Positions 1,135-50,162 of a stretch of DNA of 64,000 bases are shown here, one piece after another. The notes below the pieces were generated by a model that searched no databases, was not told the DNA's origin, and saw only the letters and a program-made list of their open reading frames with translations. Source of the stretch: a virus. Its lineage: Duplodnaviria; Caudoviricetes. A program made the position numbers and the translations under genes. The stretch's first letter is position 1. Each line of letters opens with the position of its first letter. The stretch is from the IMG/VR virus record IMGVR_UViG_3300028887_000070, positions 128,001 through 192,000 of that record. The stretch is one strand, 5' to 3'.

Positions 1135-1281
1135 CTTTCATAGTTCCCACTTACTCCAATCCCGCCTTTCCTCTCGGGATCATAGTCATTGAGCAGTGGC
1201 AAGCCAAGAACGTCAGCACTTTACTGATCTATTACCTTGACTCACTATGATTATATACATTCGAAGTCACCCACTTTTACG
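1135..1281 (-). promoter_or_regulatory. Conserved promoter + structured 5' leader cassette, copy 1
   Basis: Shares GTAAAAGT..TGTATA..AT..AGTGAGTCAAGGTA..TGACGTTCTTGRCTTG..AATGACTATG..GGAAC.ATGAAAG with 40586-40732 and 50019-50162; stems covary between copies. Confidence 0.85.
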
Positions 1282-1687
1282 AACTCTTAGTACCGCCATT
1301 CTGATTGTCAAGCACCTTAATGGCTTTGTAGAGGTCATCGTATACATTCTTAATCATGCTTGTAAGATCCTTGCATGCATTGTAGTCGTTCTGATTATAC
1401 TCCATATTGAAGTCTTCTGGAAGTCTGAGTCTCTTAATACCATCTATCTGCATGTCAAGCAGAGGTGCAAGTGCATCTTCATAAGTGATTGATGCGTCTG
1501 CATCTAAGCTACCTATAGTGCCAAGGTAGTGGCTTGCTATAGTATAGTAGATTTTGTCCTTAGCACACTGATTCTTCCAGTGCTTATCGAGTGTAGTTCC
1601 GTCATACTCGAAGTTATCGAACATGCTGTCTGCAGCATCGTAACGGATACGTGCAAATGTCTTAACAAGTTTTCTTACCTTAATCAT
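1277..1687 (-). CDS. Hypothetical protein
   Basis: 136-aa ORF in a co-oriented minus-strand run, overlapping the upstream stop. Confidence 0.7.
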   Translation of the reverse strand: MIKVRKLVKTFARIRYDAADSMFDNFEYDGTTLDKHWKNQCAKDKIYYTIASHYLGTIGSLDADASITYEDALAPLLDMQIDGIKRLRLPEDFNMEYNQNDYNACKDLTSMIKNVYDDLYKAIKVLDNQNGGTKSS

Positions 1688-2318
1688 TTCCCTTTACCTC
1701 CATCCCCAAATACTTCTTCCTCAGCTCAACCCATTCATTCATGAGTGTTACTGTCTGTTCATGGATTGGAGAAGAGGTATGACGAATATGACTTATGATT
1801 CCGCTCTTGCCAAGTGATTCAATAAGCTCAATGTCGTCGACTAATCTAAGAAGATCACCTGCAAGGTCTGTATCTCCCTTATATACATCAGGGAACTTTC
1901 TTTCGTCTACAATTCTCTTAAGACTTCCAGCTACTTCACAGAAGTAGATATAAGAAGTACCATAACGCTTATTATGAAGCTCTATCATAGCCTTCTTCTC
2001 TTCTGCTACTTCTGAAGTGGTAGTCGTATCATCTTCCATATTAAGAGCATTAAGAAACTTGTAGTATGATTCTACAATCTGCTTAGCCTGTTCATTGCCA
2101 GAACGGGAGTATGATATCATATTCTCCTTACCACACTGATCGAACAGTGATACAATGCTGGCAAGTTCATTAACCTGCATCAAGTCTTTGGGAATGTCAT
2201 CAGCCTGTCTCTGGTTAATCATTATCCTTATATGATCCATTTCGGTATCATATGAGGTTGCTTTTGTACCATACTTCGCTTCCAGATACTTAAGTATCTG
2301 ATCTTTAATTTTGTTCAT
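1680..2318 (-). CDS. Hypothetical protein
   Basis: ORF track; start moved to ATG 2318, which follows AGAAAGGAGAG. Confidence 0.7.
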   Translation of the reverse strand: MNKIKDQILKYLEAKYGTKATSYDTEMDHIRIMINQRQADDIPKDLMQVNELASIVSLFDQCGKENMISYSRSGNEQAKQIVESYYKFLNALNMEDDTTTTSEVAEEKKAMIELHNKRYGTSYIYFCEVAGSLKRIVDERKFPDVYKGDTDLAGDLLRLVDDIELIESLGKSGIISHIRHTSSPIHEQTVTLMNEWVELRKKYLGMEVKGND

Positions 2319-2375
2319 AAGAACTCTCCTTTCTAAAAAGAAACCGTGGTTGTTAGCCACGGTTTCATGATTGTG

Positions 2376-3386
2376 TTATTCACTTATTTCGATATTGCCG
2401 ACATCGATAGCTTCGATACAGATATCAACGTTTCCATTGAATGACTCTGCTATTGTCCTGATTACAGAATTGCCGACATTGCTAGCATTGATCATTACAT
2501 ATGGACGGTTAGTGTGTATAGGTTCTGAATCGAAAGGTTTGAAAGAATCGTTGAAAGCCTTAACCTTTTCCATCATAGCGGTCTTTGCCTTTTCATACTT
2601 CTTACCCTGGTTATCAGAATCAACCTTGTCATCGTTCACATTAGGAAGATTTACTACTCCCTTCTGGTAGAGATACTTCTGAAGCGGAGCAAGATCAACT
2701 CCTTCTTCCACTCCATTTACAGCCACCTCGTGCAGCGTGCTGTAAACAGCATCATCAACGAGCTTATACATAGGCTCATCAAGTTCGTTTACTGAAGCAT
2801 CGAATGGACTGTTAATGTATATGTAATTAATTACAGTCCTTAAAGCCTCGATGAGTTTTCCAAATGACTGAGCAGATTCAAACTTACCAGAGTCTGCTGC
2901 TACAGTGACCGTATCATTAGATCCTGTGTAGTTACAGAATAAGGAATCGTTTTTGAAATCTCCGCTTCTAAAGATCTCACATAATGCTTCTCCGATCTCT
3001 TTTACATTCTCTCCCCAGTTCTTAGGCCATGTGAACTGAAGATTGAGTGTGTTTACTTCAGACGCTTTAGTGCCATTAGAACTGATTGTGCCTGCTTTCA
3101 CTATTGCAGCGAAAGCCTTTTCAACTTTGTCCTTTTTAGTGCCAAGTATCGTTGTTAAGGACATCAGTTCTCCTCCTGTAGGGAGGCGTTCTTCGTTAAG
3201 AACCCTTGCCAGCATGTTCTTGAACCTTGAAGAAGATTTTGAAATCTTGGTCTTTATTTCTGAGATAGTGGTTCCTGTTGCTTTAGAGAGTGCTTCCATA
3301 AAGAGATGCGGAGTACTCTCAACTTTGTTACCATCTTTGTCTTTTGCAGTAAAGGTTATGGTTTCTCTCATGTATTCTTTGTTCAT
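2376..3386 (-). CDS. Hypothetical protein, possible N-terminal XRE-like helix-turn-helix
   Basis: 336-aa ORF; the segment TTISEIKTKI...LARVLNEERLPTGGELMSLTTILG resembles XRE HTH helices. Confidence 0.5.
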   Translation of the reverse strand: MNKEYMRETITFTAKDKDGNKVESTPHLFMEALSKATGTTISEIKTKISKSSSRFKNMLARVLNEERLPTGGELMSLTTILGTKKDKVEKAFAAIVKAGTISSNGTKASEVNTLNLQFTWPKNWGENVKEIGEALCEIFRSGDFKNDSLFCNYTGSNDTVTVAADSGKFESAQSFGKLIEALRTVINYIYINSPFDASVNELDEPMYKLVDDAVYSTLHEVAVNGVEEGVDLAPLQKYLYQKGVVNLPNVNDDKVDSDNQGKKYEKAKTAMMEKVKAFNDSFKPFDSEPIHTNRPYVMINASNVGNSVIRTIAESFNGNVDICIEAIDVGNIEISE

Positions 3387-3404
3387 GGTTTATACATCCT
3401 TTCG

Positions 3405-4178
3405 TTATTCAGACTCTACATTGGAGTCATTCTTCTTAGTCTTGACGCATTCGATTGAGCCGTCTTCTTTAACAGACAAACTACATTTGGTAAAAGTAAC
3501 ACCTATGTTGTAGTCCTTACCGTCTGATGAAAGTTTGAAACCCGTATCTACAATATTCAGTATCATTGACGTGATAGCAAAGTCTATCACATCTGGTGAT
3601 TCCAATACAGCTACTACGTTGTTTCTGAGTGACTCGTAAGCCTTAGCTCCTGTTTCATCATACATAAAACAGCTCCACGTACCGTTGGTGCTGTTATCAA
3701 TATGACTTATACAAAGAGGTGTAATGCACTTCCATATAGGAAGATCTCTCTTTGCATTCTTTGGTACTTTTGCCGTATAGAACTCAAAACGTACCATATC
3801 AGTAACAAGAATGTCACCAAATAGGTCTCCATCCTTGAACTGTTTGATTCTTTCTGCTCTGTTTGGTAGAGGGCAGAATGAGATTCTTATCCTATACTTA
3901 CCTTTATAAAGTAGATCACCATTACTCATTGTAGTTACTGGTTCGTACTGATATGGGTTCCAGATAAGATTCTTAATCGCTTCTGCTCTTGTCCAGTTTA
4001 TAACTTTCAGTATAGCCTGAGTATCCTTCGGTATCACACTTGGTTCCAAAGAATCTGTCAGCTTGTTCTTTTGATTCTGAATCTCTTCAGTGAGTTCCCA
4101 AATTTCCTTAGAGAACTCTTGTTTGATGAGATCATCTTCATCGTAAAAGATAAGGTCGTCCATAAGATTCATGAGCAT
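3405..4178 (-). CDS. Hypothetical protein
   Basis: 257-aa ORF with AAAGGAGGAG RBS and an early-type promoter upstream. Confidence 0.75.
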   Translation of the reverse strand: MLMNLMDDLIFYDEDDLIKQEFSKEIWELTEEIQNQKNKLTDSLEPSVIPKDTQAILKVINWTRAEAIKNLIWNPYQYEPVTTMSNGDLLYKGKYRIRISFCPLPNRAERIKQFKDGDLFGDILVTDMVRFEFYTAKVPKNAKRDLPIWKCITPLCISHIDNSTNGTWSCFMYDETGAKAYESLRNNVVAVLESPDVIDFAITSMILNIVDTGFKLSSDGKDYNIGVTFTKCSLSVKEDGSIECVKTKKNDSNVESE

Positions 4179-4258
4179 ATGTATACTCCTCCTTTCATAT
4201 AAGATCTATACACATCAGCCAAAGGAGTGGTGCAAGTGGCCGTTGTATATACACCTTA

Positions 4259-4268
4259 ATAGTATGTA
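4259..4268 (-). promoter_or_regulatory. Early-type promoter box TACATACTAT
   Basis: Identical 10-mer at 25124-25133 (-); related boxes precede other non-structural genes. Confidence 0.55.
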
Positions 4269-4340
4269 ACTCAGCTATGTTTTATCAGAGCAATCTGCAA
4301 ACCATACAGTAATCACTATTGTACCGAAGGAGGTGCTATT

Positions 4341-4478
4341 ATGGACGATAAGAACTACGGAGTACTCAATGAGCAGGGCTATGTAGGAGCTAAGCTCGGC
4401 TTCACTCCACTCAATGAACAGGACTCTAAAGCTGCTGAAGCAGAGAAGAAAGAGTCTGAGAACAAGGACAAGGAATAA
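4341..4478 (+). CDS. Small protein (45 aa), MDDKNYGVLNEQGYVGAKLGFTPLNEQDSKAAEAEKKESENKDKE
   Basis: Read manually (below the track cutoff); AAGGAGGT RBS, TAA at 4476-4478, directly upstream of the tubulin gene. Confidence 0.7.
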   Translation: MDDKNYGVLNEQGYVGAKLGFTPLNEQDSKAAEAEKKESENKDKE

Positions 4479-4501
4479 TATCCCAAAGGAGGATCGATCC
4501 C

Positions 4502-5845
4502 ATGCTTAGATCATTCACATTCGGTTGTGGTCAGGGCGCTACTAAGGCAATGATCACTGCCATCGACAATGACGTACTCGATAAGAGCAGATGTGTCGTA
4601 GTTAACTCTACGATCAAAGATGTCCCTTCCGAGTACAGACCCACTGCTATCATCATCTCAGACGATCCTGACGCAGGTTGTGGTAAGGTAAGAGACGCAG
4701 CGCGTGCGTTGATGAACGACTTTATCAAGGTTAATCCAAACTATCTCGAGGAACTCATCCCCGAAGATACAGACTATGTAAACATCATCACCACTTCAGA
4801 GGGTGCTTCTGGTAGTGGTTCTTCTGTAGTACTTGCTCAGTATATCAGTAATTCTATGCAGCTTCCTGTTATCATCACACTGATTACAGGCTTTGAATCT
4901 GATGTAAGAGGTCTCCAGAACACCATCAACTACTTCAGAGACCTTAAGGGTGCTAACTGCGGAATCATCACTGTATCAAACAGACGTTTCCTCAATGAAG
5001 CTAATGGCAATATCTTCGTTGCCGAGAAGCTTGCTAACGAGGACATCTCCAAGACACTTTCTATCATCGGAGCTCAGGGTCTTATAGACTGCGAGCAGAA
5101 CATCGATGATACTGATCACTACAAGATTATCACCAATCCTGGTATAATCTTCGCTGGAGAAGTAGAAGTATCAGACCGTATCAAGAATGCTGACCAGTTC
5201 AACAAGCTTGTAGGTGACATGATCGACAATACTACTTCACTCGACTTCGAGCCTTCTGCTACTAAGGTAGGTATCTACATGAACATACCTGAGGGTACTA
5301 TAGAGGTTCTCGATACTGAGTTCAGTGTAATCAAGAAAAAGCTCTGCTGGAACGGATTCCAGGAGTTCTTCATCCACAGACAGTACAATCCTAAACAGAA
5401 GAGCTTCATCAGAGTCATTGCTTCAGGTATCAACATGCCTAAGGCTGAGCTGATGAATATGTACGACAAGTTCGAGAAGTCTACCAATCAGATGAACGCT
5501 GCAGAGGATGACTTCTTCGATACTCTTGGTAAGCTTGAGACTAATGCTCAGCTCGAGAAGAAGGTAGAGAGAGATGACTCATTTCTTGACGCCTTCGCAA
5601 CAGCTTCTAGCGATGAAGCTAGCGCAGTCTTATCTCGAAACAAGAGGAAGTCGGGTGTCAGACTCGGAACGTCAAAGCACTCAGCACCTGAGAAGGTTCA
5701 GGACACAACTAACAAGGTGGCTGATGAAGAGGTAAAGAAGGGTTCTAATCCTCTTACTTCTGACGGAAAGACACGTTCAAACCCTAAGCACTCTATGGGT
5801 ACTAGCAAGCACCTTACAGAGTTCTCGGAAGAGGGAATCAAGTAA
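4502..5845 (+). CDS. phuZ: Tubulin/FtsZ-family GTPase (PhuZ/TubZ-like)
   Basis: N-terminal GCGQG, GCGK loop, tubulin signature variant EGASGSG, NIDDTD T7-like loop, low-complexity C-terminal tail. Confidence 0.85.
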   Translation: MLRSFTFGCGQGATKAMITAIDNDVLDKSRCVVVNSTIKDVPSEYRPTAIIISDDPDAGCGKVRDAARALMNDFIKVNPNYLEELIPEDTDYVNIITTSEGASGSGSSVVLAQYISNSMQLPVIITLITGFESDVRGLQNTINYFRDLKGANCGIITVSNRRFLNEANGNIFVAEKLANEDISKTLSIIGAQGLIDCEQNIDDTDHYKIITNPGIIFAGEVEVSDRIKNADQFNKLVGDMIDNTTSLDFEPSATKVGIYMNIPEGTIEVLDTEFSVIKKKLCWNGFQEFFIHRQYNPKQKSFIRVIASGINMPKAELMNMYDKFEKSTNQMNAAEDDFFDTLGKLETNAQLEKKVERDDSFLDAFATASSDEASAVLSRNKRKSGVRLGTSKHSAPEKVQDTTNKVADEEVKKGSNPLTSDGKTRSNPKHSMGTSKHLTEFSEEGIK

Positions 5846-30691: not shown

Positions 30692-30765
30692 TGGTTAGGG
30701 TAGCGGGGTTCGAACCCACGATCGCAGATTCAAAATCTGCTGCCTTACCGCTTGGCCATACCCTA
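30692..30765 (-). tRNA. trnQ: tRNA-Gln (anticodon UUG) with encoded CCA
   Basis: Reverse complement TAGGGTA-TGGCCAAGCGGTAAGGC-A-GCAGA-TTTTGAA-TCTGC-GATC-GTGGGTTCGAACCCCGC-TACCCTA-A-CCA. Confidence 0.95.
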
Positions 30766-30919
30766 GCGCTTCATTATAGTAAAGTTACGTCTCTAAACAC
30801 TAAGTTTCCCCTAGGGTCCCACACCCTAGGGGAGGTTCGGTTATCATATATGAAACAAGGAGGATCATTATGATATACATCGAGTATAGATGGAGGGGGT
30901 AACTCTCCATACTATATAG

Positions 30920-31890: not shown

Positions 31891-33666
31891 ATGAACTTTA
31901 ACCTTTATGGACAAACACCAACAACTTTAACTGAAGAAGAAAAGAAGATTCTAAAAGCTACTGGTGATAGTAGCTTAGACTTTACAGAAGAGGAAGCTAA
32001 AGAAGCTCATAAGAACAAAGGAGTACCTTATATGAGATCCTACTCAACCGATATTAGCACAAGACTCGCTGAAGAAGAATCACAGCTTTACAGTATGATA
32101 AAGACGAAAAGATTGAAACTGAAGCAAGGATACAAGAAAGCTTTGATTGAAAAAGATGAAAAGGATATCAACTTCATTATCGATAGACCAAACAAGTCAT
32201 ACAAGTATGAGAATAAAACGATAGCCAGTTTAGTAAAAAACAGTCCATATCTTTGCTACTTCGATGAACCTGATTCAGATCCAATAACATTGTATACCAT
32301 AGGTATGCACATATTCGACAAAGGACTCAAGTATCTAGAATCCATGTCAGTAAATGGCAAGAAGTCATACAATGACCTATTCAATGCTCAGCTTAAGAAG
32401 ATAGCAGAATTCAACACAGAATCAAAGTTTGATCATCTCCCATATCAACATCTCGAATGTCTATCTTTCGCATTCGAATCTGCTATGAGTGCAAAAGATC
32501 CAGATTACAAAAACATTCTTCATCAAGAAGAATACCTCGAAACAGTCGGTAATGTCAGTTCGTTTGTAATGTCATTAGTATACAGTGTAATAGAGTATGA
32601 CTACAATACATACAATATAATCAAAGACAAGCATCATAAAGATATGCTTCCAGATTGGTTACTAAACTTTGTTCTTGTAATATCTAAAGACGATGATCCG
32701 ATCTATATAGCAAAGGAAAGAGATGATGATACATTTGATGATGATAAGGATCGAGCCATATTGGAACTTGCTTATGATGTTATGGAATACATCGAAGATG
32801 AGATACGTCGAGACGGCGAATCAACAGAAGAGTTTATACGTACGTATTGTGACTATAAAGACAAGACTTATAACGACTATGCTATAATGATGGTCATGTC
32901 TTATGTAGAAGCATTGATTGTATACGCTCTTCAGATATATACTGATTCATTCTCACCTGACTGTCATCATGACTTATATCATAAACTTACAGACCTATGG
33001 ACAATGCCTATGTATGTGATAGACGCAACCTATTCAAGTTACTTACATCTTAGAGTGGATGAGGTCTTAATAGACTCCAACGTCAATGCTTTGAAACTTG
33101 CAATGACAATAACTAGTTCAATACAAGAACTCTTAAAGAAAGAAACAACACACTCAGAACTGTTGAATGATTATCACAATCATATACAATACTCTGATTC
33201 ATGGACTTCACAGCCACAATCACAAATCCCAGGCAGTCGGTTCAATCCATCGGCACAACCACCATATCTCAACATGAGACTCAATCAGTTAGAGACTACT
33301 GTCAACTCTCTTGTTAGAGAGAATGCTGAGCTTAAGGGTAGATTGGATAAGCTTGAAACTTCGTATGCTTCTAAAGACCAATCATCAATCTCAGAGAGCG
33401 ATAAAGAAGAATCCTGTGTTCATAACGACTATGTCGCATATCTTTACAATAACGACTATCCTAAAATAGACCCTTTTAAAAAGGGCGCTGATATGGAGTA
33501 TGAAAAGTGGAAATCTGGTATGAGTGGACCAGTATTAAACTACTTTAGACACTCTATCTATAATATGAGTATCGAGTCAGATGATGGTACTGTAATAAGG
33601 CACAAATGCAATCTATGCGGAAAGCATTTCGTCATAGACAGACGTCTTATAACTTTCAGCAAGTAA
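31891..33666 (+). CDS. Hypothetical protein with C-terminal coiled coil and possible zinc site
   Basis: ATG 31891 after AAAGGAGG; early box at 31800; C-terminal HKCNLCG. Confidence 0.75.
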   Translation: MNFNLYGQTPTTLTEEEKKILKATGDSSLDFTEEEAKEAHKNKGVPYMRSYSTDISTRLAEEESQLYSMIKTKRLKLKQGYKKALIEKDEKDINFIIDRPNKSYKYENKTIASLVKNSPYLCYFDEPDSDPITLYTIGMHIFDKGLKYLESMSVNGKKSYNDLFNAQLKKIAEFNTESKFDHLPYQHLECLSFAFESAMSAKDPDYKNILHQEEYLETVGNVSSFVMSLVYSVIEYDYNTYNIIKDKHHKDMLPDWLLNFVLVISKDDDPIYIAKERDDDTFDDDKDRAILELAYDVMEYIEDEIRRDGESTEEFIRTYCDYKDKTYNDYAIMMVMSYVEALIVYALQIYTDSFSPDCHHDLYHKLTDLWTMPMYVIDATYSSYLHLRVDEVLIDSNVNALKLAMTITSSIQELLKKETTHSELLNDYHNHIQYSDSWTSQPQSQIPGSRFNPSAQPPYLNMRLNQLETTVNSLVRENAELKGRLDKLETSYASKDQSSISESDKEESCVHNDYVAYLYNNDYPKIDPFKKGADMEYEKWKSGMSGPVLNYFRHSIYNMSIESDDGTVIRHKCNLCGKHFVIDRRLITFSK

Positions 33667-39400: not shown

Positions 39401-40078
39401 AAGGATACTAGTATTGCAAAGATAGCAAAGTATCCAGTAGTTATAAAGATGAATGGTCCTATCAAGACCGAATTACGTAGAGAGAAACGTACCATACAAC
39501 ACTGTCTTGATGATGATGCTAAGCTTATAGATATCATCAAGAAAGTTGCTCGTAGACATAAGCAATGGTGGAAGCAAGGATTCTATAAACATGACTGGGA
39601 CGAACTCAAATACTTTAAGACACATATAGGAGAAGCTGTATCAATCTTCAATGAGATGAAGAAGTTCCCTGTTGAGTTTGATAAGGATGGTAATCTTATC
39701 ATCTATAAGTGTTCTACAGGAAACATAGACTTCGACGAAGAGATAGACAACAGTGTAACTCTTCTCGAGACTTATAGAAACACCAACAATGAAGAGGGTA
39801 TGAAGTATGAGCTCGCTAAGATGTGGTACATTATAGCAGAGCTTGAGAAGAGAATGAAGAAGAGAAACGTTCCTGTGGACGAGTACAACAAACTCGTTAG
39901 ACAGAGAAGCATAGCTATGAATGTGTTTAAGACAAACTTCAAGCACATGAGTAGTCTCGACAAGAACTTCAACTTCGCAGCATACTACAACAGTACACCT
40001 TTCTCAGACAACGGTGTTAAGATCACTAACAGTACGTTAAGATACGGACTGGCGGCAATGAAGAGAATCGTTAGATGA
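36485..40078 (+). CDS. Multidomain late (virion-type) protein: permuted papain/NlpC-P60-like, GNAT acetyltransferase and P-loop kinase modules
   Basis: YSHASISFD...YDF...VCSTFV; YIGEIYIVKEHRNKGIGTALL...AIKLYKSLGF; CGLSGSGKST...VVEG; start after AAGGAGG. Confidence 0.75.
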   Translation: MREDTYKEVLAKKYARESNYVIITPTDNLEELEELWNKFLSTMTIRQQRLCDDRSIQIYGMTNQQHYEALKADFIKHTKEPKKRDWGLDNRELSFKISPDDSLVNAKSNTFTTDTDADFEGLVFEGTDGPYFSGSGIYVIPDIEGGTAKEQLEDLEKHYANYMSLTVHQRKLSDDGSRMMYGLSNQQRYDQLKGELLKNVDTSDDSDVVGKLEPDLQSDEANIVDEMFHDPNTFVGQHFLKSLEESKKADKPVKSRLNNTPYFTPTELIDMGVHGNDNYYSQKADNDGLTKDISSTAWFDSYKNMIAQHVYEDFTAEWINTLNRLYLDYDEIKECGTEEELLARKQSILDLGWNPEVPFTPENRVKASKRINDYIDHCVPRDIFINMDDIVPDDLPDVVEEAVSKKTHKPVFIVLTKGKTPIISSSIQKVTKSEYSHASISFDHNLKELYSYNFRKENLGFVMEKLETIKDVPITVWCFFAESEVVENMKKKVYDFKTHDTHYDFRMLPRFIRKKDIKPDDNEYNQVCSTFVDTVLKAGNINLVRDINMPSPADIYDGIKTRANTIFKVYDGPAGQYNGSRVKKKVDYLLNKDTTEAVNEACKDVKTARKFVREVEKLAKRYDANYFIVTDGASGIHNNGNPAVKNARDAQVRWEKENGYDPDEDWSKNPINEASLPSGVTLRSANKNDEENIYKWEMESIDPSKRTKSRVIKLMRQDAKESVNHAKMIMYNGETIGMYDVVPIDGGEWTYIGEIYIVKEHRNKGIGTALLKDTIEKHDRIKLRVASSNTKAIKLYKSLGFEVVEKEDSKSYIMALDKTESLKEYVEDLKSAERNDIYHNIEDWESGKSNLIWVCGLSGSGKSTMAEEIVGSGDIEHVELDLIQAGKIRQWEDDDERLTGVLLDFVKYKGGFDNIFPKYTEKARKGELNFGDMMDKSCAEQFDELFDYIMKYAKKNPNRRFVVEGVQIAVCSKDTSIAKIAKYPVVIKMNGPIKTELRREKRTIQHCLDDDAKLIDIIKKVARRHKQWWKQGFYKHDWDELKYFKTHIGEAVSIFNEMKKFPVEFDKDGNLIIYKCSTGNIDFDEEIDNSVTLLETYRNTNNEEGMKYELAKMWYIIAELEKRMKKRNVPVDEYNKLVRQRSIAMNVFKTNFKHMSSLDKNFNFAAYYNSTPFSDNGVKITNSTLRYGLAAMKRIVR

Positions 40079-40128
40079 CAAAAAAGAAGGGGTGGCAGTG
40101 CTGACCACCCCTCCTCTTCTTGTATTAG

Positions 40129-40575
40129 TTACATTGCTACTTGAACGAATTCGTCCAAGTTACAATCGTAACTGAGCAGTTCAACTATTTCTTCATTACT
40201 CATTTCCATACCTTTGATATCTTTATACCATTCAAATTGTACATACATTTTGTCAAGGATAGATGTGATATGATTGATAGCTTCGTTTCCTGTGTACGAT
40301 TGTCTCTCAAATACAGCAGTCTTATCAAAGAAGTCTATTAAGTCCATTACTTCGCTGAAGAATGTGAAGTCGATCTCGTTTAAAGTTACTAAAGCATTTC
40401 TGATAACTCTTATATACTTTGCGTCGTTGTCATCATTTACTGATGCATCATCTAAGCTTGCACCGTTGTCATTTACTTCGTGCATTATCGTATCATACAT
40501 TCCGCCCAGAAGTACAAAGAGTTCATATGCCTTACGGTCAACTATACTCTTCTTGATTATATCGCGTCTTAACAT
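40129..40575 (-). CDS. Hypothetical protein behind leader cassette copy 2; candidate anti-defence protein
   Basis: 148-aa acidic ORF starting right after the cassette. Confidence 0.7.
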   Translation of the reverse strand: MLRRDIIKKSIVDRKAYELFVLLGGMYDTIMHEVNDNGASLDDASVNDDNDAKYIRVIRNALVTLNEIDFTFFSEVMDLIDFFDKTAVFERQSYTGNEAINHITSILDKMYVQFEWYKDIKGMEMSNEEIVELLSYDCNLDEFVQVAM

Positions 40576-40585
40576 AAAGCCCTCG

Positions 40586-40732
40586 CTTTCATTGTTCCTA
40601 CCCTAGCGGCTCCTACCTTTCCACTTAGGAGCATAGTCATTTGCTGAGTAGCAAGCCAAGAACGTCAACCTTTGTTGAACTACTACCTTGACTCACTACA
40701 ATGGTATACAGTCAAAACCATCTACTTTTACG
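40586..40732 (-). promoter_or_regulatory. Conserved promoter + structured 5' leader cassette, copy 2
   Basis: Homologous to 1135-1281 and 50019-50162 with compensatory stem changes. Confidence 0.85.
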
Positions 40733-40780
40733 CAACAAAAAAAAGAACGGACCCGTTAAGGTCCGTTCTCTATCTTTGTC

Positions 40781-40903
40781 TTACTCCTGGTTGGGCTTCT
40801 CTTCAGGCTCGTAATCCTTACAGTCCATGCAGCCGTTACATTCGATATGATATATGCAGCATTCATCGTAGTTGACGATGTACTTACAGTTTCTTGTATC
40901 CAT
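40781..40903 (-). CDS. Small Cys-rich protein (40 aa), MDTRNCKYIVNYDECCIYHIECNGCMDCKDYEPEEKPNQE
   Basis: Read manually; AAGGAGGT RBS; followed by a terminator hairpin. Confidence 0.7.
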   Translation of the reverse strand: MDTRNCKYIVNYDECCIYHIECNGCMDCKDYEPEEKPNQE

Positions 40904-40914
40904 ATTATACCTCC

Positions 40915-41694
40915 TTAGATATCGATCATACGTCTTACTCCATTGATGTCATACTTACCAAAGCTCATTACATTAAAGAGACCATTCACAGCATTGATAA
41001 GAGTAGAACTAGTCTCAGCATCAATCTTATCCTTAAGACGTGCTATAAGTGAATCGATACTCTTTGTCTTTACACATGGGAATTTTGGTGTTTGGTATAA
41101 AGATGACATCGCCATATCACTATACTCTGCTGCAGGAATCGACTTTGCTTCAATGCCACCTATAAGTTCTGTGAAGAGATTTGCTGTCTCATAGTCTCTA
41201 AGCTTCTCGAATATTTCCTTTATAGTATCGAGGAAGTTTGTATACACAGGAGTCCATTCACCATCAGAGTGCGTATAGCTTATTTTAGGAAGACAGAGTT
41301 CATTGTATACATATCTGAGCATAAAGTACAACTTAGACTTGTTTGTCTTAGCGACAGTATCAAGAGATGTATCTCTGAGCTCTATATTGCTATCTCTTGA
41401 GATGACATAGATCTGACTAAGAATAGCATCTCTGATGTTTCCTTCTCTGAGATCTTTACAGATGTATTCATTGTAGTCCTTGTAAGGTTCGCCGTCTTCG
41501 GTACAGCAATCGGGCGCCTTGTTGTACAGCTCCCATATCTTATCATATGCGTTTTGTGATACAGGATCGATCAGTGATTTCATGTTCTCCATGATAACGT
41601 AAAAGTTCATACCAGAAGGATAGTCTCTATAGAGTTCCTCTTGAAGACTTGTAAGTTGCTTCTTGAGCTCTTTGAGCTTCTTACTGCTCTCCAT
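40915..41694 (-). CDS. Hypothetical protein, tandem paralog of 41681-42505
   Basis: Shared SLDTVAKTNKSKLYF and LINAVNG...MSFGKY. Confidence 0.8.
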   Translation of the reverse strand: MESSKKLKELKKQLTSLQEELYRDYPSGMNFYVIMENMKSLIDPVSQNAYDKIWELYNKAPDCCTEDGEPYKDYNEYICKDLREGNIRDAILSQIYVISRDSNIELRDTSLDTVAKTNKSKLYFMLRYVYNELCLPKISYTHSDGEWTPVYTNFLDTIKEIFEKLRDYETANLFTELIGGIEAKSIPAAEYSDMAMSSLYQTPKFPCVKTKSIDSLIARLKDKIDAETSSTLINAVNGLFNVMSFGKYDINGVRRMIDI

Positions 41695-42505
41695 TGTTAG
41701 TACCTCCTCTTATACATGGTGGGATCTCACAGAGATCTATCATGCGTTTAATGTCTACTATCTCGTACTTGCCAAAGCTCATTATGTCAAGCATGCCATT
41801 GACTGCATTGATAAGAGTGGTATCTGTCTCAGCGTCTATTCTAGTCTTAAGAGTTGCTTCAAGTCCAGTTATGAGATCCATGTTAACACACTGGAACTCT
41901 GGAGTCTGACATATAGCAGCTACGAACTCATTGACATTGTTAGAAATTGGCGGCTTCTTCATCTCTATAGATCCCAATAGACGATTGAGCATACTTATCA
42001 TCTCATCATCTTTCAGGTCTTCAAAGATGTCTCTTAAATTGAAGAGATAACTTGTATCTACTGGCATCCACGTTCCATCTGGGAGATTGAAGCTTATCTT
42101 AGCCATAGTGATATCATTGTAGAAGTATCTAAGAATGAAGTACAACTTAGACTTGTTTGTCTTAGCGACAGTATCAAGAGAGTCGTCTTTGAGTTCAATC
42201 TTATTCTCTCTTGTTATAGTGTAGATCTGGCTAATGATACCATCTCTGATTGTACCATTTCTGACGTCATTACAGATATACTGATTGAAGTCCTTATAGG
42301 GTACATCACCACCATTAGTACTACGGAAGTCAGGTGCCTCGTTGTAGAGATTCCATATTTCCTCATATGCTCTCACAGATACAGGATCAATCAAATCCTT
42401 TATAGCTTCCATGATAGTCTTGAAGTTGTGCCTGCTAGGAAAGTCTTTATAGAGTTCTTCCTGAAGGGCTATGAGCTGTTTCTTGAGCTTCTTACTGTTA
42501 TCCAT
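41681..42505 (-). CDS. Hypothetical protein, tandem paralog of 40915-41694
   Basis: Colinear similarity over the whole length. Confidence 0.8.
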   Translation of the reverse strand: MDNSKKLKKQLIALQEELYKDFPSRHNFKTIMEAIKDLIDPVSVRAYEEIWNLYNEAPDFRSTNGGDVPYKDFNQYICNDVRNGTIRDGIISQIYTITRENKIELKDDSLDTVAKTNKSKLYFILRYFYNDITMAKISFNLPDGTWMPVDTSYLFNLRDIFEDLKDDEMISMLNRLLGSIEMKKPPISNNVNEFVAAICQTPEFQCVNMDLITGLEATLKTRIDAETDTTLINAVNGMLDIMSFGKYEIVDIKRMIDLCEIPPCIRGGTNNGEQ

Positions 42506-42964: not shown

Positions 42965-43011
42965 CACGTTGAGACTGAGAAGTCTTAATACTTTGGAAAG
43001 GAGGCATTCTT

Positions 43012-43581
43012 ATGCTAACAGGATCCGCGATTATACAGGCGGTCAAGAAGAAAGAGATACAGATCACGCCATTTGACATATCATGTATCAACCCAAACAG
43101 TTACAATGTCCATCTCGCTAACACTCTGAAGATATACACGGAGCATAGAGTTTTGGACACTAGGGAGAAGAACATCCCTGATTATGAACGTACAATACCA
43201 GAAGAAGGATTCATACTCTATCCTGGTAAGCTGTACATTGGCTCTATAGTAGAACGAGTCAAGAGCAACTTCTATATATCTGCAATCGACGGAAGATCTT
43301 CTATAGGAAGACTTGGTCTGCAGATACATGCAACAGCAGGTTTCGGAGATATAGGATTTGATGGACACTATACTCTGGAGATGATCGCAACTGTTCCAGT
43401 GAGAGTCTATCCTAATGACCTCATAGGACAGCTGTACTTTGAGAAACCTGATGGCGATGTAGACTTCCTCTATAGTGGAAGATATCAACACCAGGTAACG
43501 CCTACTGAGAGTAGGATTGAAATCGATAGCCGAACTATCAAGGGCTATCACTATGTAGAACAACAGAAAAAAGATGAGTAG
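43012..43581 (+). CDS. dcd: dCTP deaminase
   Basis: INPNSYNVHL, GRSSIGRLGL, TAGFGDIGFDGHYTLE, IGQLYF, Y.GRYQ.Q. Confidence 0.92.
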   Translation: MLTGSAIIQAVKKKEIQITPFDISCINPNSYNVHLANTLKIYTEHRVLDTREKNIPDYERTIPEEGFILYPGKLYIGSIVERVKSNFYISAIDGRSSIGRLGLQIHATAGFGDIGFDGHYTLEMIATVPVRVYPNDLIGQLYFEKPDGDVDFLYSGRYQHQVTPTESRIEIDSRTIKGYHYVEQQKKDE

Positions 43582-46509: not shown

Positions 46510-46512
46510 ACC

Positions 46513-47595
46513 ATGTACTTCGTTCCTGCAAAGAGAGGCTTTAACTCAGAGTATATCCCAGTACAGGCTATACTCTTCTCTTACTACATCAAGTATGATA
46601 ATCTGAGGGAGCTCACTAGTGAGGCTTTCTCAGGATCAGATTCAGATGAACTGATAGTGTACATAGACTGCTATGATATCATCAAGTCTATATACAACAG
46701 ATCTCTGTTAGGACCAGATGGACTCTTTGAGTCTTCATCCAATATCCTTACATCAGCCCTATTGAATCTGGCTGCTCACCTTAGATCATTCTATTGGAGC
46801 GGCTATCATGTAAAAACAGAGTTCTATCTAGTGTTCAGTGAACAGCCTCAAGGGGTTAGTCTTAACCACTACTGTCATAACGAACACCTTGATAGAATCA
46901 TCGACTTAAACCTTAAGATGCTGCGTACACTATGTCCATACATTCCAGGTGTCTATCTTATGGAGAGAACTTGGGATTCTTCTATAGTAGTAATGACGGA
47001 TGTCAAGCAGCATAGAGAAGCAGGAATCAACACTCCTGCGATAATCATTTCTAAAAATGATATGATGTGGCAAATACCTTGCCAATACCCAGATATTGCT
47101 GTATTCAGACCACGCAAGACGTCATCTGGGGACACGTCATTTTGCGTACATCAACGCAACGTCGTTTCAGTGTACAGAACACAGAGAAGGCACATGAAAA
47201 CGATGCTAGAGGCATTTCTAGCTCCTGGACTACTTCCGTTATATATAGCGATGACTAGTTATAGTGAGTTGGATCTGCCAATCTACTTTAGCTCTTCCAG
47301 AGCAGTATCTTTGATAACTGGAATGGTAAGAGATAACAGAATTCTTAATGGCTATAACTCTCCAGATGCTATAGAGGGCATACTGAAAGAAGTTAGTCTT
47401 AAGAGTGGACAGATGAACTTGTATGAGAGGTATAAGATAATAGACCTCTTCTATAAGGCAAACATCTACCAAACAAAGCCTGAGTCTACCATACTGCTTA
47501 AGACTCAGTTATCAGACGTAGCAGGTGTAGAAAGCATCAATAACGAGTACTTCACAAGTAACCCGATTGACATCATACACTTGTTCTACTCATAA
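46513..47595 (+). CDS. Hypothetical protein, possibly a degenerate PIN/5'-3' exonuclease-fold protein
   Basis: VYID N-terminal strand, YLVFS, IIISKND pattern; catalytic set not clearly intact. Confidence 0.45.
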   Translation: MYFVPAKRGFNSEYIPVQAILFSYYIKYDNLRELTSEAFSGSDSDELIVYIDCYDIIKSIYNRSLLGPDGLFESSSNILTSALLNLAAHLRSFYWSGYHVKTEFYLVFSEQPQGVSLNHYCHNEHLDRIIDLNLKMLRTLCPYIPGVYLMERTWDSSIVVMTDVKQHREAGINTPAIIISKNDMMWQIPCQYPDIAVFRPRKTSSGDTSFCVHQRNVVSVYRTQRRHMKTMLEAFLAPGLLPLYIAMTSYSELDLPIYFSSSRAVSLITGMVRDNRILNGYNSPDAIEGILKEVSLKSGQMNLYERYKIIDLFYKANIYQTKPESTILLKTQLSDVAGVESINNEYFTSNPIDIIHLFYS

Positions 47596-47611
47596 GATGG
47601 GAGGAATAGTT

Positions 47612-48121
47612 ATGAACTTATTCAATGAAGATAAGATTGATAGGTTTACTAGTACGATTGAGATGGACAACATAAACAATCTAAACGACAATAGACTGAA
47701 GGATATGATCGACAGCTTCAAAGGTCACTACTTCAATGTGATTAGGTATCATATAATGGAGCATTATGGCATGTCTTCACTAATACTTTACTGTAACAAC
47801 GCTCCTAGTAGTGATACGTTCGAAGGGACTACTCTTCATGCGATCTTCTGTGTTGACCCAGAATATGATAAGCTTTCTAGATCGATAGTAGAGACAACTT
47901 ACAAGAAATTTATCAAAGCTGTTCGCGACAGTGTAAACAACAATGAGAATCCTACATTCTCGATAGGCACTGAAATATTTGGAGAGACACTTAGTCGTGA
48001 TGAAGAGAATCATCCAGTAAACGATTCATTCAGTCATCAGCATCCATTACTCAATGTAATCGAGAACATCTGGAGTGAAGAAGAAAACGATGATGAGAGA
48101 GAAGAAGGTAAGATCATATGA
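47612..48121 (+). CDS. Hypothetical protein
   Basis: GGGAGG RBS before ATG 47612. Confidence 0.7.
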   Translation: MNLFNEDKIDRFTSTIEMDNINNLNDNRLKDMIDSFKGHYFNVIRYHIMEHYGMSSLILYCNNAPSSDTFEGTTLHAIFCVDPEYDKLSRSIVETTYKKFIKAVRDSVNNNENPTFSIGTEIFGETLSRDEENHPVNDSFSHQHPLLNVIENIWSEEENDDEREEGKII

Positions 48122-48366
48122 TGACACATGATATTATCTTAAGGATCGCTAAGACGATCTGCTTCGTGATTGCTGGAACATGTATCTATATAGGGATGGA
48201 TAACATGAAGAAAGCATTCCAGTGTAAGAATAATCCTCTGACAGAGAAGGAAAGACTTCATGGTTGGAGAATACTTATTACTATCTCTATATCGTTCTTC
48301 ATAGCAGGATTCCTGCTGATAGTGTTGGGGTACTATCTTATAACAAGACTTGCTGGGACAGGTTAA
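48118..48366 (+). CDS. Small two-TM membrane protein
   Basis: Two hydrophobic helices. Confidence 0.65.
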   Translation: MMTHDIILRIAKTICFVIAGTCIYIGMDNMKKAFQCKNNPLTEKERLHGWRILITISISFFIAGFLLIVLGYYLITRLAGTG

Positions 48367-48451
48367 TCCTGTCTCGGCACTCTTGTGCCTCTAACACGCT
48401 TTGTTTTTTCTTAGCCATGTACATCTTAATAAGTATGAAAGGAGTGATCTC

Positions 48452-49642
48452 ATGGCACTTGAATCGTATAGATACAAGGTGACTCTTAGCTACATCCACT
48501 TCGGATACGAGATAGCTATAGACCCACAACAGATACAGTATGTAGGTATAGATAGAACTTTCGATAGTAACAACATGCCTGTCATAGCAGTGAACTGTAA
48601 CATCGAAAGAGATATACTGGACATGATGATACAGAACACTAATGAGAACATCGTAGAGTTAGGTATCTTCAGATACGATGCTTCTAATCAGAATGATAAT
48701 ATAACTAAGAAGTACTTCCATGATCGTTTCATCTACTTCTTAGGAGATGACATCTCTCAGACTGCTGAGATAGACTATGGTAACGGACAAGAGCATACAA
48801 GAGAGAAGTATAAAGAGGTTACTATGTGGCTGATTCAACAGGATGCAGTGAACAACAACCGTAAGGTTATCAATGGTATCTTCAAGAATGCTACTACCAA
48901 CTCTCTGATTCTTCAGATAACTGACTATGTAGGAAACACTGTACTTGAGCCAGTAGACTATGATAACAAGTACGACCAGATTATCATACCTCCTACAAAC
49001 AGCATAGCTCAGTACATAGCATTTCTCAACAACAATCTGTCAGTTTTCTATGATACTGGATATAGGTTCTTCATAGACTTCGACATGACATACATAGTGT
49101 CTAGTAAGGGGAAGCCTATACAGACAAAGAACCAGAACATCTTCACTGTCGAAATCAATGTGACGAATATCATACCTGATGAGGACTCTGAGTCTGGTAT
49201 GGTAGTAGATACAAGGAATGGTAAGTATATCATGGATGTACCATTGGCAAACATCAACTTCACAAAAAATAATGTGACTAACAAGATGGTGAACAAGATC
49301 ACCACCATCGATAGCAGCGGTAATGTGAAGGAGAAGTTGATAGAAGGTAATGATACTAATGTAACGACTATGATGAACAAGATAGTGAATCTGAGCAACA
49401 ACGACCAGAACGCTATCAACAACATTACTGCAGATTACGAGTTGAACAATGTATTCCTTAGTATCACCAAGAATGACCTTGATGCTAGTATCTTCACTAT
49501 GAACAAGGAGTACATCATCACTATGGATGAAGACCATGAAGAGTATAGCGGAAGATACCTTCTGAGTGCAGTAAAGCAGTTCTTCGTAAAGCAGAATGAG
49601 TACTTCGTAATGACAACGATACTGTTGTTCAAGAAGATATAA
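48452..49642 (+). CDS. Probable virion structural (baseplate hub/tail-like) protein
   Basis: Late-like TACA tcttaa TA upstream; beta-rich; C-terminal YSGRYLLSAVKQ.F resembles hub-protein termini. Confidence 0.5.
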   Translation: MALESYRYKVTLSYIHFGYEIAIDPQQIQYVGIDRTFDSNNMPVIAVNCNIERDILDMMIQNTNENIVELGIFRYDASNQNDNITKKYFHDRFIYFLGDDISQTAEIDYGNGQEHTREKYKEVTMWLIQQDAVNNNRKVINGIFKNATTNSLILQITDYVGNTVLEPVDYDNKYDQIIIPPTNSIAQYIAFLNNNLSVFYDTGYRFFIDFDMTYIVSSKGKPIQTKNQNIFTVEINVTNIIPDEDSESGMVVDTRNGKYIMDVPLANINFTKNNVTNKMVNKITTIDSSGNVKEKLIEGNDTNVTTMMNKIVNLSNNDQNAINNITADYELNNVFLSITKNDLDASIFTMNKEYIITMDEDHEEYSGRYLLSAVKQFFVKQNEYFVMTTILLFKKI

Positions 49643-49687
49643 GAAATAAAAAAGAACCCCCTATGGGGGTTCTTACTTCTGACTGAA

Positions 49688-50008
49688 TCAGCACTTGCTG
49701 ACAAGCCAGAAGTTTATTGTTGCACCTTCTGGGAGCGTTGTAGCTCCCTCAGGCAGTCTCGGCCCAGTATACTGAGCCACCAAAAGCGTCTCATCGGATG
49801 TGAGCTGTACGCTCATTCGATTTGGGTTTACCTCGATGCCAAGAATGCCGCCTACAATGTTGGCGGTGTCATCATGGCCTATAGCTGATATTATATCATC
49901 AGCCTCTTTGATGAATGTTCGAGCAGTCTCTGTGGAGATCTGCTCGAAATTTACCTTTGCTGTACCAGACAGCATGTTTATCGAGAATGCATTTGTGATA
50001 ATAATCAT
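49688..50008 (-). CDS. acrIII-1: DUF1874 (STIV B116/YddF-like) family; AcrIII-1-type cA4 ring nuclease anti-CRISPR
   Basis: 106 aa; NAFSINML, SAIGH..TA (catalytic GH), NR..V, RLPEG and terminal F.W match the family pattern. Confidence 0.85.
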   Translation of the reverse strand: MIIITNAFSINMLSGTAKVNFEQISTETARTFIKEADDIISAIGHDDTANIVGGILGIEVNPNRMSVQLTSDETLLVAQYTGPRLPEGATTLPEGATINFWLVSKC

Positions 50009-50018
50009 ATGACTATTC

Positions 50019-50162
50019 CTTTCATAGTTCCCGTTACCATATTCCTGGCCTTCCCCCAGGATCATAGTCATTGGCAACGACAAGTCAAGAACGTCAGCAC
50101 TTTACTGAACTACTACCTTGACTCACTATAATGATATACAACTATTCGACTCTACTTTTACG
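50019..50162 (-). promoter_or_regulatory. Conserved promoter + structured 5' leader cassette, copy 3 (upstream of acrIII-1)
   Basis: Homologous to copies 1 and 2; ends in the RBS GAAAGGA. Confidence 0.85.

Follow-up and report, generated by a model that had tools for sequence, protein, structure and literature searches.

A shared promoter and folded leader RNA precede unrelated small accessory genes in a rumen jumbo phage

Introduction

In phage T4, the PeSL (promoter-early stem-loop) is a simple stem-loop that sits beside a host sigma-70 early promoter and works by homology at the DNA level. These repeated units of promoter and hairpin flank non-essential accessory genes and are sites of gene gain, loss or exchange. 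At the RNA level, several Firmicute messages carry 5' stabilisers: the aprE leader of Bacillus subtilis, which combines a 5' stem-loop with ribosome binding, the STAB-SD of B. thuringiensis cryIIIA, and the polypurine stabiliser of Hue et al. 1995 (reviewed in PMC3997798). The DUF1874 RNA motif (Weinberg et al. 2017) is a multistem structure in the 5' UTRs of small genes, including DUF1874 genes, that is repeated before successive unrelated ORFs, and its authors raised a role in cassette shuffling (PMC5737381). Finally, the jumbo phage AR9 has 5' UTRs of 26-491 nt, with predicted shared motifs in early and late transcripts (Lavysh et al. 2017, PMC5312081).

Here we describe a repeated promoter-leader element in a phage from bovine rumen, an AR9/PBS1-like jumbo phage with a genome of 231,846 bp; the stretch of that genome analysed here, 64,000 nucleotides long, is referred to as the window. 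Like the T4 PeSL, the element is a repeated unit of promoter and hairpin at accessory genes that are gained, lost or exchanged; unlike it, the element contains 105 nt of covarying RNA structure that is under selection, and its exchange breakpoint coincides with the promoter. With the Firmicute stabilisers it shares a Shine-Dalgarno (SD)-like purine run that has no start codon of its own and lies upstream of the real ribosome-binding site, and portability among unrelated genes; a hairpin at the 5' terminus, as in those stabilisers, is predicted for the phage leader from promoter geometry. The phage also uses an extended SD, AAAGGAGG, of the kind typical of the hosts of those stabilisers. However, the phage leader is far more elaborate (two domains, about 28 conserved pairs), has a near-invariant stem P1 and near-invariant junctions, occurs several times in a single genome and goes with a single promoter class. 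We regard the likeness as a functional analogy, not homology.

The resemblance to the DUF1874 RNA motif is qualitative and judged by description: both are multistem 5' UTR structures with conserved internal-loop nucleotides (P2/P3 and J2/3 in the phage). That motif occupies consecutive intergenic regions of same-strand arrays (RNA-ORF-RNA-ORF), whereas the phage copies are dispersed, each with a promoter and a terminator to itself. AR9 belongs to the same broad jumbo-phage group, with two multisubunit RNA polymerases, but blastn detects no sequence relation between it and the leader; its promoter consensus, AAATATATATTAT-N6-G, differs from that of the element, and its 5' UTR motifs have not been shown to covary, as the phage leader does.

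Results

The window contains three copies of the element, all on the minus strand, at 1128-1280, 40579-40731 and 50012-50161. A preliminary description had placed three minus-strand copies there, and both a genome-wide BLAST search and a covariance model confirmed them: copy 1 returned exactly three matches in the 231,846-bp genome (E values 2e-83, 4e-30 and 9e-22), and the model recovered copies 1-3 at 123-141 bits. Each copy consists of a promoter, GTAAAAGT-N17-TAnnAT, and a leader of ~105 nt that continues into the ribosome-binding site; 10-12 nt separate its end from the ATG of the gene that follows, a different one for each copy. The copies are spaced 9-39 kb apart, spread over 49 kb, and flanked by convergent or unrelated genes. 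The count of three holds for the window but not for the genome, where the promoter class occurs five times and a fourth, divergent leader lies outside the window (genome positions 42988-43092, minus strand), downstream of a fourth promoter copy. In this fourth lineage the sequence of P1 differs from that of the other copies, and ~105 nt of extra hairpins separate the leader tail from the start codon. The same promoter and folded leader are shared by three or four small accessory genes that are unrelated to one another.

The promoter of copy 1 (1250-1280, minus strand) has its box, GTAAAAGT, at 1273-1280, followed by a 17-nt spacer and TATAAT at 1250-1255. Those of copy 2 (40701-40731, minus) and copy 3 (50131-50161, minus) read GTAAAAGT-N17-TACCAT and GTAAAAGT-N17-TATCAT, respectively. 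The stop codon of the ORF upstream of copy 1 (1277-1687) falls within the promoter box. A long, structured stretch of non-coding sequence comes after each of the five promoters of the class. The intrinsic terminator of the upstream gene (40742-40771, minus) immediately precedes promoter copy 2; at copy 3, a terminator-like hairpin follows the 482-aa upstream gene (50170-50194, minus) and, in relatives with other cargos, is conserved alongside the promoter. An intrinsic terminator read directly from the sequence (49646-49674, minus) closes the copy-3 unit. Every unit is monocistronic, with terminators or convergent genes at its limits.

Both sigma-70-type spacing and the AR9 early-promoter rule, element-N6-G(+1) (PMC5312081), predict that transcription starts at the G of AGTGAG, so P1 would begin at the first nucleotide of the RNA. 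Metatranscriptome contigs from bovine gut cover the gene and the leader up to 40680 for copy 2 and 50093 for copy 3 and nothing upstream; these ends fall 17 and 34 nt short of the predicted +1, on contigs that are unstranded, may include DNA and cannot show transcript ends. DNA runs extend past both points. On these same RNA contigs, leader and gene are joined.

The leaders occupy 1128-1246, 40579-40697 and 50012-50127 (all minus strand; copies 2 and 3 covered by metatranscriptome contigs from 40680 and 50093 downwards). From 5' to 3', each comprises a near-invariant hairpin at the predicted 5' end, a nested hairpin with an SD-like purine loop, and a weakened real SD. In copy 1, the lower stem of P1 pairs 1235-1245 with 1199-1209 and encloses the P1b hairpin (1212-1229); P2 pairs about 1190-1198 with 1147-1156 and encloses the P3 hairpin (1158-1181), whose purine loop lies at 1165-1174; the tail, GGAACTATGAAAGG, spans 1134-1147 and continues into the SD. 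We aligned 17 distinct leader sequences from four gene contexts, drawn from the window phage and from related rumen-phage contigs, in which the leader precedes orthologues of all three cargo genes. Paired positions were compatible with pairing in 96% of cells, compared with 34-50% in slid controls, and nine pairs had changed on both sides; none of 500 shuffles reached the covariation score. Each sequence folded alone gave the same architecture, and the sense strand folded better than the antisense, by 11 kcal/mol (mean minimum free energies of -30.6 and -19.5 kcal/mol). These data bear out the proposal that a structured, covarying RNA leader is joined to a promoter of its own, and all three sets of compensatory stems originally quoted are present.

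The fold also appears not to have been described before. Searched with the whole window at the gathering threshold, Rfam 15 gave a tRNA as its sole match, and each copy at E<=10 gave only chance matches or matches to the upstream terminator. Likewise, blastn against 50,697 phage records found no match, and IMG/VR, JGI metagenomes and 185,579 species genomes, when scanned by pattern, yielded only close relatives or chance matches. By these scans, the distribution of the RNA is limited to a single phage clade.

Conservation is unevenly distributed over the about 28 conserved pairs, which form two stem-loop domains 0-1 nt apart. Eight of the 11 P1 pairs never vary, the G.U pairs (four are conserved in P1) included, and P1 contains an asymmetric internal loop that is likewise conserved, whereas P2 and P3 are free to drift. 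Many unpaired nucleotides between the covarying stems are conserved, and J2/3 retains AA..UAUG across lineages. Two motifs, ACUAUG and GAAAGG, are duplicated, with one instance of each around P3 and the other at the ribosome-binding site, and P1b and loop haplotypes are common to paralogous lineages. The sequence blocks reported as invariant, AGTGAGTCAAGGTA, TGACGTTCTTG(G/A)CTTG, AATGACTATG and GGAAC(T/A)ATGAAAG, are present as quoted in the three copies, but two of them vary in relatives: AATGACTATG is replaced by AAAGTTTATG or AATGATTATG, and the ATG within GGAACTATGAAAG by ACG. The two suggested alternative pairings, AGTCA with TGACT and TAGTTC with GAACTA, are lost when one partner varies. 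The predicted folds contain no alternative structure that sequesters the SD and no internal anti-SD or terminator usable as an expression platform, and no terminator or known processing signal lies between leader and gene.

At -16 to -8, AAAGGAG occurs in 37% of the long ORFs of the phage and GAAAGG in 23%, giving a phage-wide SD of (G)AAAGGAGG; because of these frequencies, we read the leader tail as the start of an extended SD. Relative to this norm, the SD cores of the tails are interrupted (GAAAGGCAGG, GAAAGCGAGGG and GAAAGGAATAG). The P3 loop presents GRRAGG in 17 of 17 sequences and has no start codon of its own; its variants (GAAAGG, GGAAGG, GGGAGG and AGAAGG) are only loosely SD-like. 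In the fourth lineage this loop reads AAGGAGAA or GGAGAG.

The genes behind the leaders encode three small proteins without detectable similarity to one another, as originally reported. P0001 (137 aa; 711-1124, minus) is an orphan: among 5.8 billion proteins, just two are close homologues. P0002 (148 aa; 40129-40575, minus) has an all-alpha model (pLDDT 82) and 11 homologues, every one from related phage contigs; no known fold or family was found for it. P0003 (106 aa; 49688-50008, minus) is a homologue of the DUF1874/STIV_B116-like ring nucleases, matching PF08960 at 1.9e-15 and PDB 2x4i at 4e-9. By sequence it resembles the AcrIII-1/DUF1874 proteins (SIRV1 gp29, PDB 2x4i and 6scf; STIV B116), although phmmer alignments show low identity to the solved structures: the conserved GH, NR and E(G) positions of SIRV1 gp29 (2x4i) are aligned and kept, with IGHDDT opposite IGHDST. 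The histidine of the GH motif is reportedly the catalytic residue (Athukoralage et al. 2020). The cargos other than this protein have no match in Pfam, PHROG, PADLOC, atlas or PDB-fold searches. On sequence grounds, then, the anti-defence link is limited to one cargo, with three of four lacking any link to defence, and the anti-defence regulon originally envisaged is not upheld.

Relatives differ in what follows the promoter. At the copy-3 site, the terminator and promoter are kept up to TATAGTGA, after which three different cargos occur; the homology breakpoint is at the promoter or predicted transcription start, not in the leader. In some relatives this site holds a 363-nt structured non-coding cargo without any gene. 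Units are present or absent among relatives, and the whole copy-2 unit is missing from some. In related contigs, no integrase or homing endonuclease is among the Pfam families listed for the called genes that surround the units. A promoter kept while its cargo is swapped or missing supports cassette exchange, and the early suggestion of a mobile or exchangeable promoter cassette gains by it.

Discussion

Our tentative best reading, by analogy, is that the element provides a Firmicute-type 5' mRNA stabiliser and translation-initiation leader. Each element would serve one stand-alone accessory gene as a complete expression unit, made up of a rare phage promoter class and a cis-acting 5' leader that acts post-transcriptionally, as in long-lived Firmicute mRNAs. 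P1, beginning at or a few bases from the RNA 5' end, would occlude that end; the P2/P3 domain would present the GRRAGG run in the P3 loop; and the tail would supply the real, interrupted SD (GAAAGG..). Together, the three parts may hold a 30S subunit or the 3' end of 16S rRNA on the leader, and the leader would thereby block 5'-dependent decay of the RNase J1/Y type. The closest cultured relatives are jumbo phages of Bacillus, Staphylococcus and Listeria, and we infer that the host is probably a Firmicute.

Some observations count against this reading. A generic stabiliser leaves the invariance of the P1 pairs and of AA..UAUG in J2/3 unexplained, and the reading is weakened by the loose SD likeness of the P3-loop motif and by the extra hairpins between tail and start codon in the fourth lineage. 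The near-invariant P1 and the J2/3 loop suggest additional recognition of the RNA by a specific factor, and at this point the stabiliser reading grades into its main rival: that the leader is the operator of a trans-acting RNA-binding protein, of phage or host, which recognises P1 and/or J2/3 and P3-loop nucleotides and co-regulates the translation or timing of the three or four cargos as a post-transcriptional regulon. An almost invariant P1, with its G.U pairs and asymmetric loop, beside stems that covary freely is what such a protein would leave behind; the doubled ACUAUG and GAAAGG would suit a dimeric binder bridging the structured site and the SD, and SD cores weaker than the phage norm and the presence of one leader on unrelated genes also fit. 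However, we found no candidate binder: homologues of CsrA, bS21 and RNase III are absent from the genome (for RegA, the search model gave no match in any control genome). In addition, GGA is conserved in neither loop nor tail, so this is not a CsrA-type site, and no alternative structure sequesters the SD. We consider an operator unlikely, though a serious contender.

The preliminary description had raised the idea of a switch. On such a reading, the P1/P2/P3 junction would be an aptamer for a small molecule, such as a cyclic oligonucleotide alarm signal, that turns on translation of counter-defence genes. The many conserved unpaired nucleotides amid covarying stems, the ring-nuclease homologue among the cargos and the lack of a match to any known RNA family would accord with a riboswitch. 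We nevertheless think it improbable, since the leader lacks an expression platform and the proposed alternative pairings break upon natural variation in J2/3 or the loop; moreover, the RNA is restricted to one clade, P1 differs in sequence in the fourth lineage, and most cargos have no tie to defence. Of the original interpretation, the RNA leader, its novelty relative to Rfam and the cassette thus stand, and the switch and the anti-defence regulon are not supported.

No better are the prospects that the leader is itself the product, a processed trans-acting RNA of ~100 nt (a decoy, an RNA anti-defence factor or a regulator of host RNA) with the genes as passengers. Multiple copies behind strong-looking promoters, structured non-coding stretches after all five promoters of the class, and the geneless 363-nt cargo could be read this way, but the distance from the end of the leader to the SD and start codon is constant, and the leader is followed by no terminator or known processing signal and is joined to the gene on RNA contigs. 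The absence of similar sequence from the 185,579 species genomes indicates, at that sensitivity, that it does not mimic a host repeat or RNA.

It is also very doubtful that the element is primarily a DNA-level recombination module, T4 PeSL- or attC-like, whose repeats mediate cassette exchange and whose RNA structure is secondary. The copy-3 breakpoint with its three alternative cargos, the presence or absence of units, and the P1b and loop haplotypes shared between paralogous lineages, as gene conversion predicts, are all consistent with exchange. Yet compensatory changes and conserved G.U pairs, together with the poorer antisense fold, favour an RNA on the transcribed strand; the breakpoint lies at the promoter, outside the leader; and no integrase or homing endonuclease is among the Pfam families listed near the units in related contigs. 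Exchange more plausibly follows from having repeated promoters than explains what the fold is for. Lastly, a put-like RNA, which as in HK022 would bind the transcribing RNA polymerase and confer resistance to termination, recalls the two adjacent stem-loop domains that immediately follow a promoter at several places in the genome, but is scarcely credible for single-gene units that end at a terminator or convergent gene, as these have nothing downstream to read through to.

If the stabiliser reading is correct, the outcome for the phage would be a stable, efficiently initiated monocistronic message, whichever gene sits behind the leader.

Three copies of one promoter and leader precede unrelated genes

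The preliminary description had reported three related elements on the minus strand, and we found all three in place, each comprising a promoter and a leader of about 105 nt (copies 1, 2 and 3; window 1128-1280, 40579-40731 and 50012-50161). When copy 1 was compared with the complete genome by BLAST, exactly three copies were returned, and a covariance model built from them scored 123-141 bits on each, with nothing else at E<=10 genome-wide under default filters. Each copy ends 10-12 nt ahead of the start codon of a different minus-strand gene: those encoding P0001 (711-1124), P0002 (40129-40575) and P0003 (49688-50008) lie behind copies 1, 2 and 3, respectively. When these three cargo proteins were compared with one another, no similarity was detectable.

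As well as the beta subunit of a multisubunit RNA polymerase, the source record (231,846 bp, G+C 41%; the window is its bases 128001-192000) encodes replication proteins that include a UvsX-like recombinase and an NAD-dependent ligase. This beta subunit shares about 31% identity with those of Bacillus phages PBS1 and AR9, followed by those of Staphylococcus and Listeria jumbo phages. Public runs containing this DNA come from 14 studies and are mostly bovine gut metagenomes. In addition, the extended Shine-Dalgarno sequence (SD) (G)AAAGGAGG is strong among the phage's long ORFs: AAAGGAG occurs in 37% of 145, versus 0.3% in the background. From the kinship of the polymerase, the bovine-gut runs and the use of extended SDs, we infer that the host is probably Firmicute-like. 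The window also holds a tRNA gene (30695-30765, minus strand; 64 bits in Rfam), which sits between a 1771-aa ORF and the next block.

Covariation supports a two-domain fold of the leader

From the contigs of homologues of the three cargo proteins, together with one pattern scan of JGI metagenomes, we collected 17 distinct leader sequences of related rumen phages, and the same promoter lay directly upstream every time. In the alignment of these 17 sequences, which was fitted to the model and hence favours structure, standard pairs fill 96% of cells and both sides are changed in 9 of the 28 pairs; the covariation score was reached by none of 500 shuffles, and sliding the partners by 1-3 columns lowered pairing to 34-50%. 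The same architecture emerged from an independent minimum free energy (MFE) fold of every sequence, and four copy-3-type rows that had scored as unpaired in the P3 helix reflect a one-column misalignment, with TCCTGG pairing with CCAGGA. The mean MFE is -30.6 kcal/mol for the sense strand versus -19.5 for the antisense strand, and four G.U pairs are kept in the P1 helix. Together, these last two results indicate that the structure is a property of the transcribed RNA.

The P1 domain consists of a nearly constant lower stem of 9-11 bp, an asymmetric internal loop, and a covarying upper hairpin (P1b) of 5-6 bp with an AAAG loop. A linker of 0-1 nt joins it to the P2/P3 domain, in which P2, formed of two segments with strong covariation between paralogues, encloses a conserved 9-10-nt junction strand (AA..UAUG) and the P3 hairpin. 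The P3 loop (10-11 nt) carries a purine run that ends in AGG in every case (GAAAGG, GGAAGG, GGGAGG or AGAAGG), and the final bases of the tail, GGAAC(U/A)AUGAAAGG, start the SD. Leader position 15 covaries with position 20, both unpaired in the P1 internal loop (in copy 1, window 1232 and 1227), with A/A in 6 sequences, G/U in 9 and A/U in 2; either a tertiary contact or the linkage of two recombining haplotypes would account for this.

The promoter forms a module of its own

The promoter is a module separate from the leader and does not follow the sigma-70 consensus. GTAAAAGT-N17-TAnnAT has only five sites genome-wide, all five on the minus strand, and three of these carry the leader of copies 1-3. 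Behind the fourth promoter (genome 43094-43124) and the fifth (33390-33420) lie about 180 nt (z = -3.3) and about 255 nt (z = -4.3) of strongly structured non-coding RNA, respectively, and then an ORF; neither stretch matched Rfam. In the fifth-promoter stretch (genome 33128-33420, minus strand; L064:729-985), a terminator-like hairpin stands just ahead of an orphan ORF of 156 aa with a separate SD. This stretch was also considered as a member of the leader family and was rejected, as it scored at most 6.7 bits.

A generic promoter scan of window 39900-41000 did not call the promoter of copy 2. The core TGTATAYHAT occurs 25 times in the genome versus about 7 expected by our base-composition estimate, which makes it a candidate core for promoters that one of the phage's polymerases uses more generally. 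It is often found just past terminator-like hairpins, as at window 345-354 (128946-128955, plus strand), 41302-41311 and 30870-30879. By sigma-70-type spacing and by the rule for AR9 early promoters, in which the element is followed by N6 and G(+1) (PMC5312081), +1 is predicted on the G of AGTGAG, and the P1 helix would therefore start at the first transcribed nucleotide.

We also examined a bovine-gut metatranscriptome assembled as Logan contigs. One RNA contig covers 40300-40680 and another 49744-50093; each contains the cargo gene and most of the leader, and they stop 17 and 34 nt before the predicted +1, with no RNA upstream of 40680 or 50093, while DNA runs cross both points. Such contigs reveal neither ends nor strand and may include DNA carry-over; they hint that leader and gene share one transcript and that transcription does not start downstream of P2/P3.

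The family includes a fourth lineage

With filters off, a broader covariance model gave 21 bits to genome 42988-43092, directly behind the fourth promoter. This was its top non-trivial match genome-wide (the runner-up reached 14.4 bits), and orthologous leaders at the same place in three related contigs scored 19-26 bits. Given the fourth-lineage leaders alone, RNAalifold again predicted the two-domain fold, and four of its pairs are changed on both sides. The P1 sequence differs from that of copies 1-3, but the lineage has in common with them the AA..CUAUG strand, a P3 loop that here reads AAGGAGAA, and a tail, AACAAAGGG. From the model match, the orthologue scores and the fold, we conclude that the family consists of four paralogous lineages, which share the P2/P3 domain and a 5'-terminal hairpin. 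Behind the fourth leader (genome 42905-43092, minus strand; L065:704-893), the 177-aa ORF has no SD beside its ATG; about 105 nt with three compact hairpins separate that ATG from the SD-like AAAGGG tail upstream, and the ribosome-binding site may be split and joined by folding.

Only one cargo belongs to a recognisable family

P0003 (106 aa) belongs to the DUF1874 / STIV_B116-like family (PF08960, 1.9e-15; PDB 2x4i, 4e-9, and 6scf, 2e-7; PADLOC Csx16, 3.6e-9), and its alignment retains GH, NR and E at the conserved positions. Members of this family are known to degrade cA4, as reportedly shown by Athukoralage et al. (2020). The remaining cargos, P0001, P0002 and those of the fourth and fifth promoters, had no match in Pfam, PHROG or PADLOC, and a protein atlas returned nothing for P0001 or P0002. 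P0002 gave a confident all-alpha structure model that matched no PDB fold, and the model of P0001 (pLDDT 46.6) was unusable. The proposal of an anti-defence regulon is not supported: with a single anti-defence-linked member, it amounts to guilt by association. Public gene calls run the cargo ORFs into the leader through internal ATGs and so inflate database lengths, as in records P0017 (125 aa versus 106) and P0004 and P0009 (154 and 171 aa versus 148 for P0002).

Cargo is exchanged behind a fixed promoter

At the copy-3 site of two relatives, the upstream hairpin and promoter are kept almost base for base to TATAGTGA, behind which different gene-less structured stretches replace the leader and the DUF1874 gene. 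The stretch in contig L051 (1613-1975, corresponding to window ~49650-50127) is 363 nt long (z = -4.3) and closes with a terminator, and Rfam gave no match for it; that in contig L041 (~750-990, about 250 nt) is shorter and different. Both are candidate phage ncRNAs. Window 40806-41700 is a hypervariable island: the strain of one public sequencing run has 131 other bases for a 259-aa gene and retains the copy-2 unit, and two further relatives (L059 and L061) have neither the 259-aa gene, nor a 41-aa ORF, nor any of the copy-2 unit. Variants of P1b and of the internal loop are common to different paralogous lineages, as gene conversion would give. These results support a promoter that acts as a fixed junction with cargo swapped behind it. 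The mobile promoter cassette proposed earlier gains support from them, although the exchange breakpoint falls at the promoter rather than within the leader.

No counterpart of the family in Rfam

No Rfam family matches the leader. Exact-block patterns gave 34 matches in IMG/VR, all within coding regions of unrelated phages, and other scans gave none; the same patterns gave one chance match among 185,579 species genomes (an Acidobacteria MAG, 6.9 bits). Neither blastn against 50,697 phage records nor a related-locus search of IMG/VR with the DUF1874 protein found relatives. Because CAAGGUA and AUGAAAG are present, mimicry of rRNA or CRISPR repeats by P1 or the tail was considered, and it was rejected when Rfam and the species genomes gave no supporting match.

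The closest published kind, compared by description rather than by consensus, is the DUF1874 RNA motif (Weinberg et al. 2017, PMC5737381), a multistem RNA with a conserved internal loop that occupies 5' UTRs before successive ORFs and whose function its authors did not establish. Unlike the arrays of that motif, the leader copies are dispersed and each has its own promoter. Long 5' UTRs are also found in AR9, from the group of this phage's relatives, and contain motifs that are shared but uncharacterised (PMC5312081).

Possible roles of the leader

We tentatively favour, at somewhat less than even probability, a role as a portable stabiliser and initiation leader. A hairpin stands at the predicted 5' end, and the P3 loop displays an SD-like purine run with no start codon of its own; the real SD follows close behind, within a phage that uses extended SDs. 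It is this combination that leads us to prefer the stabiliser and initiation role, for which passages of a review (PMC3997798) offer analogies in the cryIIIA STAB-SD, the aprE leader and a polypurine 5' stabiliser. The tail ATG was rejected as a start codon, as it is ACG in three relatives. A coding leader was likewise rejected: the short ORFs opened by internal ATGs are wholly different in each copy, with frameshifts caused by indels.

P1 and the junction strand are more nearly constant than a stabiliser would need, and for that reason an operator for a specific binding protein, which we consider unlikely overall, stays a strong rival. However, a search of the phage genome found no recognisable CsrA, bS21 or RNase III; the RegA model in that search had no match in any control genome.

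A riboswitch is improbable. Of the alternative pairings put forward in its favour, AGUCA with UGACU breaks under natural variation, as AGUCA is constant while UGACU becomes AGUUU or UGAUU in relatives, and for TAGWTC with GAACWA all mismatching arrangements occur in relatives. None of the folds examined sequesters the SD, the leader is not separated from its gene by a terminator, and nothing that we found supplies an expression platform. A released trans-acting RNA is no likelier. The combined interpretation of riboswitch and regulon is not supported. A phage-borne sensor RNA, whose conserved junctions would bind a defence-related signal such as a cyclic oligoadenylate, or a defence protein, and switch on a few counter-defence genes, is also improbable, and a recombination site acting purely at the DNA level seems very improbable. 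A put-like antiterminator is scarcely credible.

Our data establish the leader as a real and well-supported structured RNA family, previously undescribed. It occurs in uncultured jumbo phages of the rumen, where it is tied to a rare class of promoter and to accessory genes that can be exchanged. The form is portable, in that a single promoter class and a single folded leader serve cargo that is interchangeable. The unit flags three orphan genes as accessory, often-exchanged cargo alongside a ring-nuclease homologue, and these are sensible candidates for an anti-defence screen, which is not evidence of that function. Were the sensor reading true, the three orphan cargos would be new anti-defence proteins, with the ring nuclease the only one recognisable today. 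If instead the leader is a stabiliser and initiation element, it would be a compact leader that could be transferred to drive expression in Firmicutes, and a phage that encodes RNA polymerases would be giving newly acquired genes a ready-made expression chassis.
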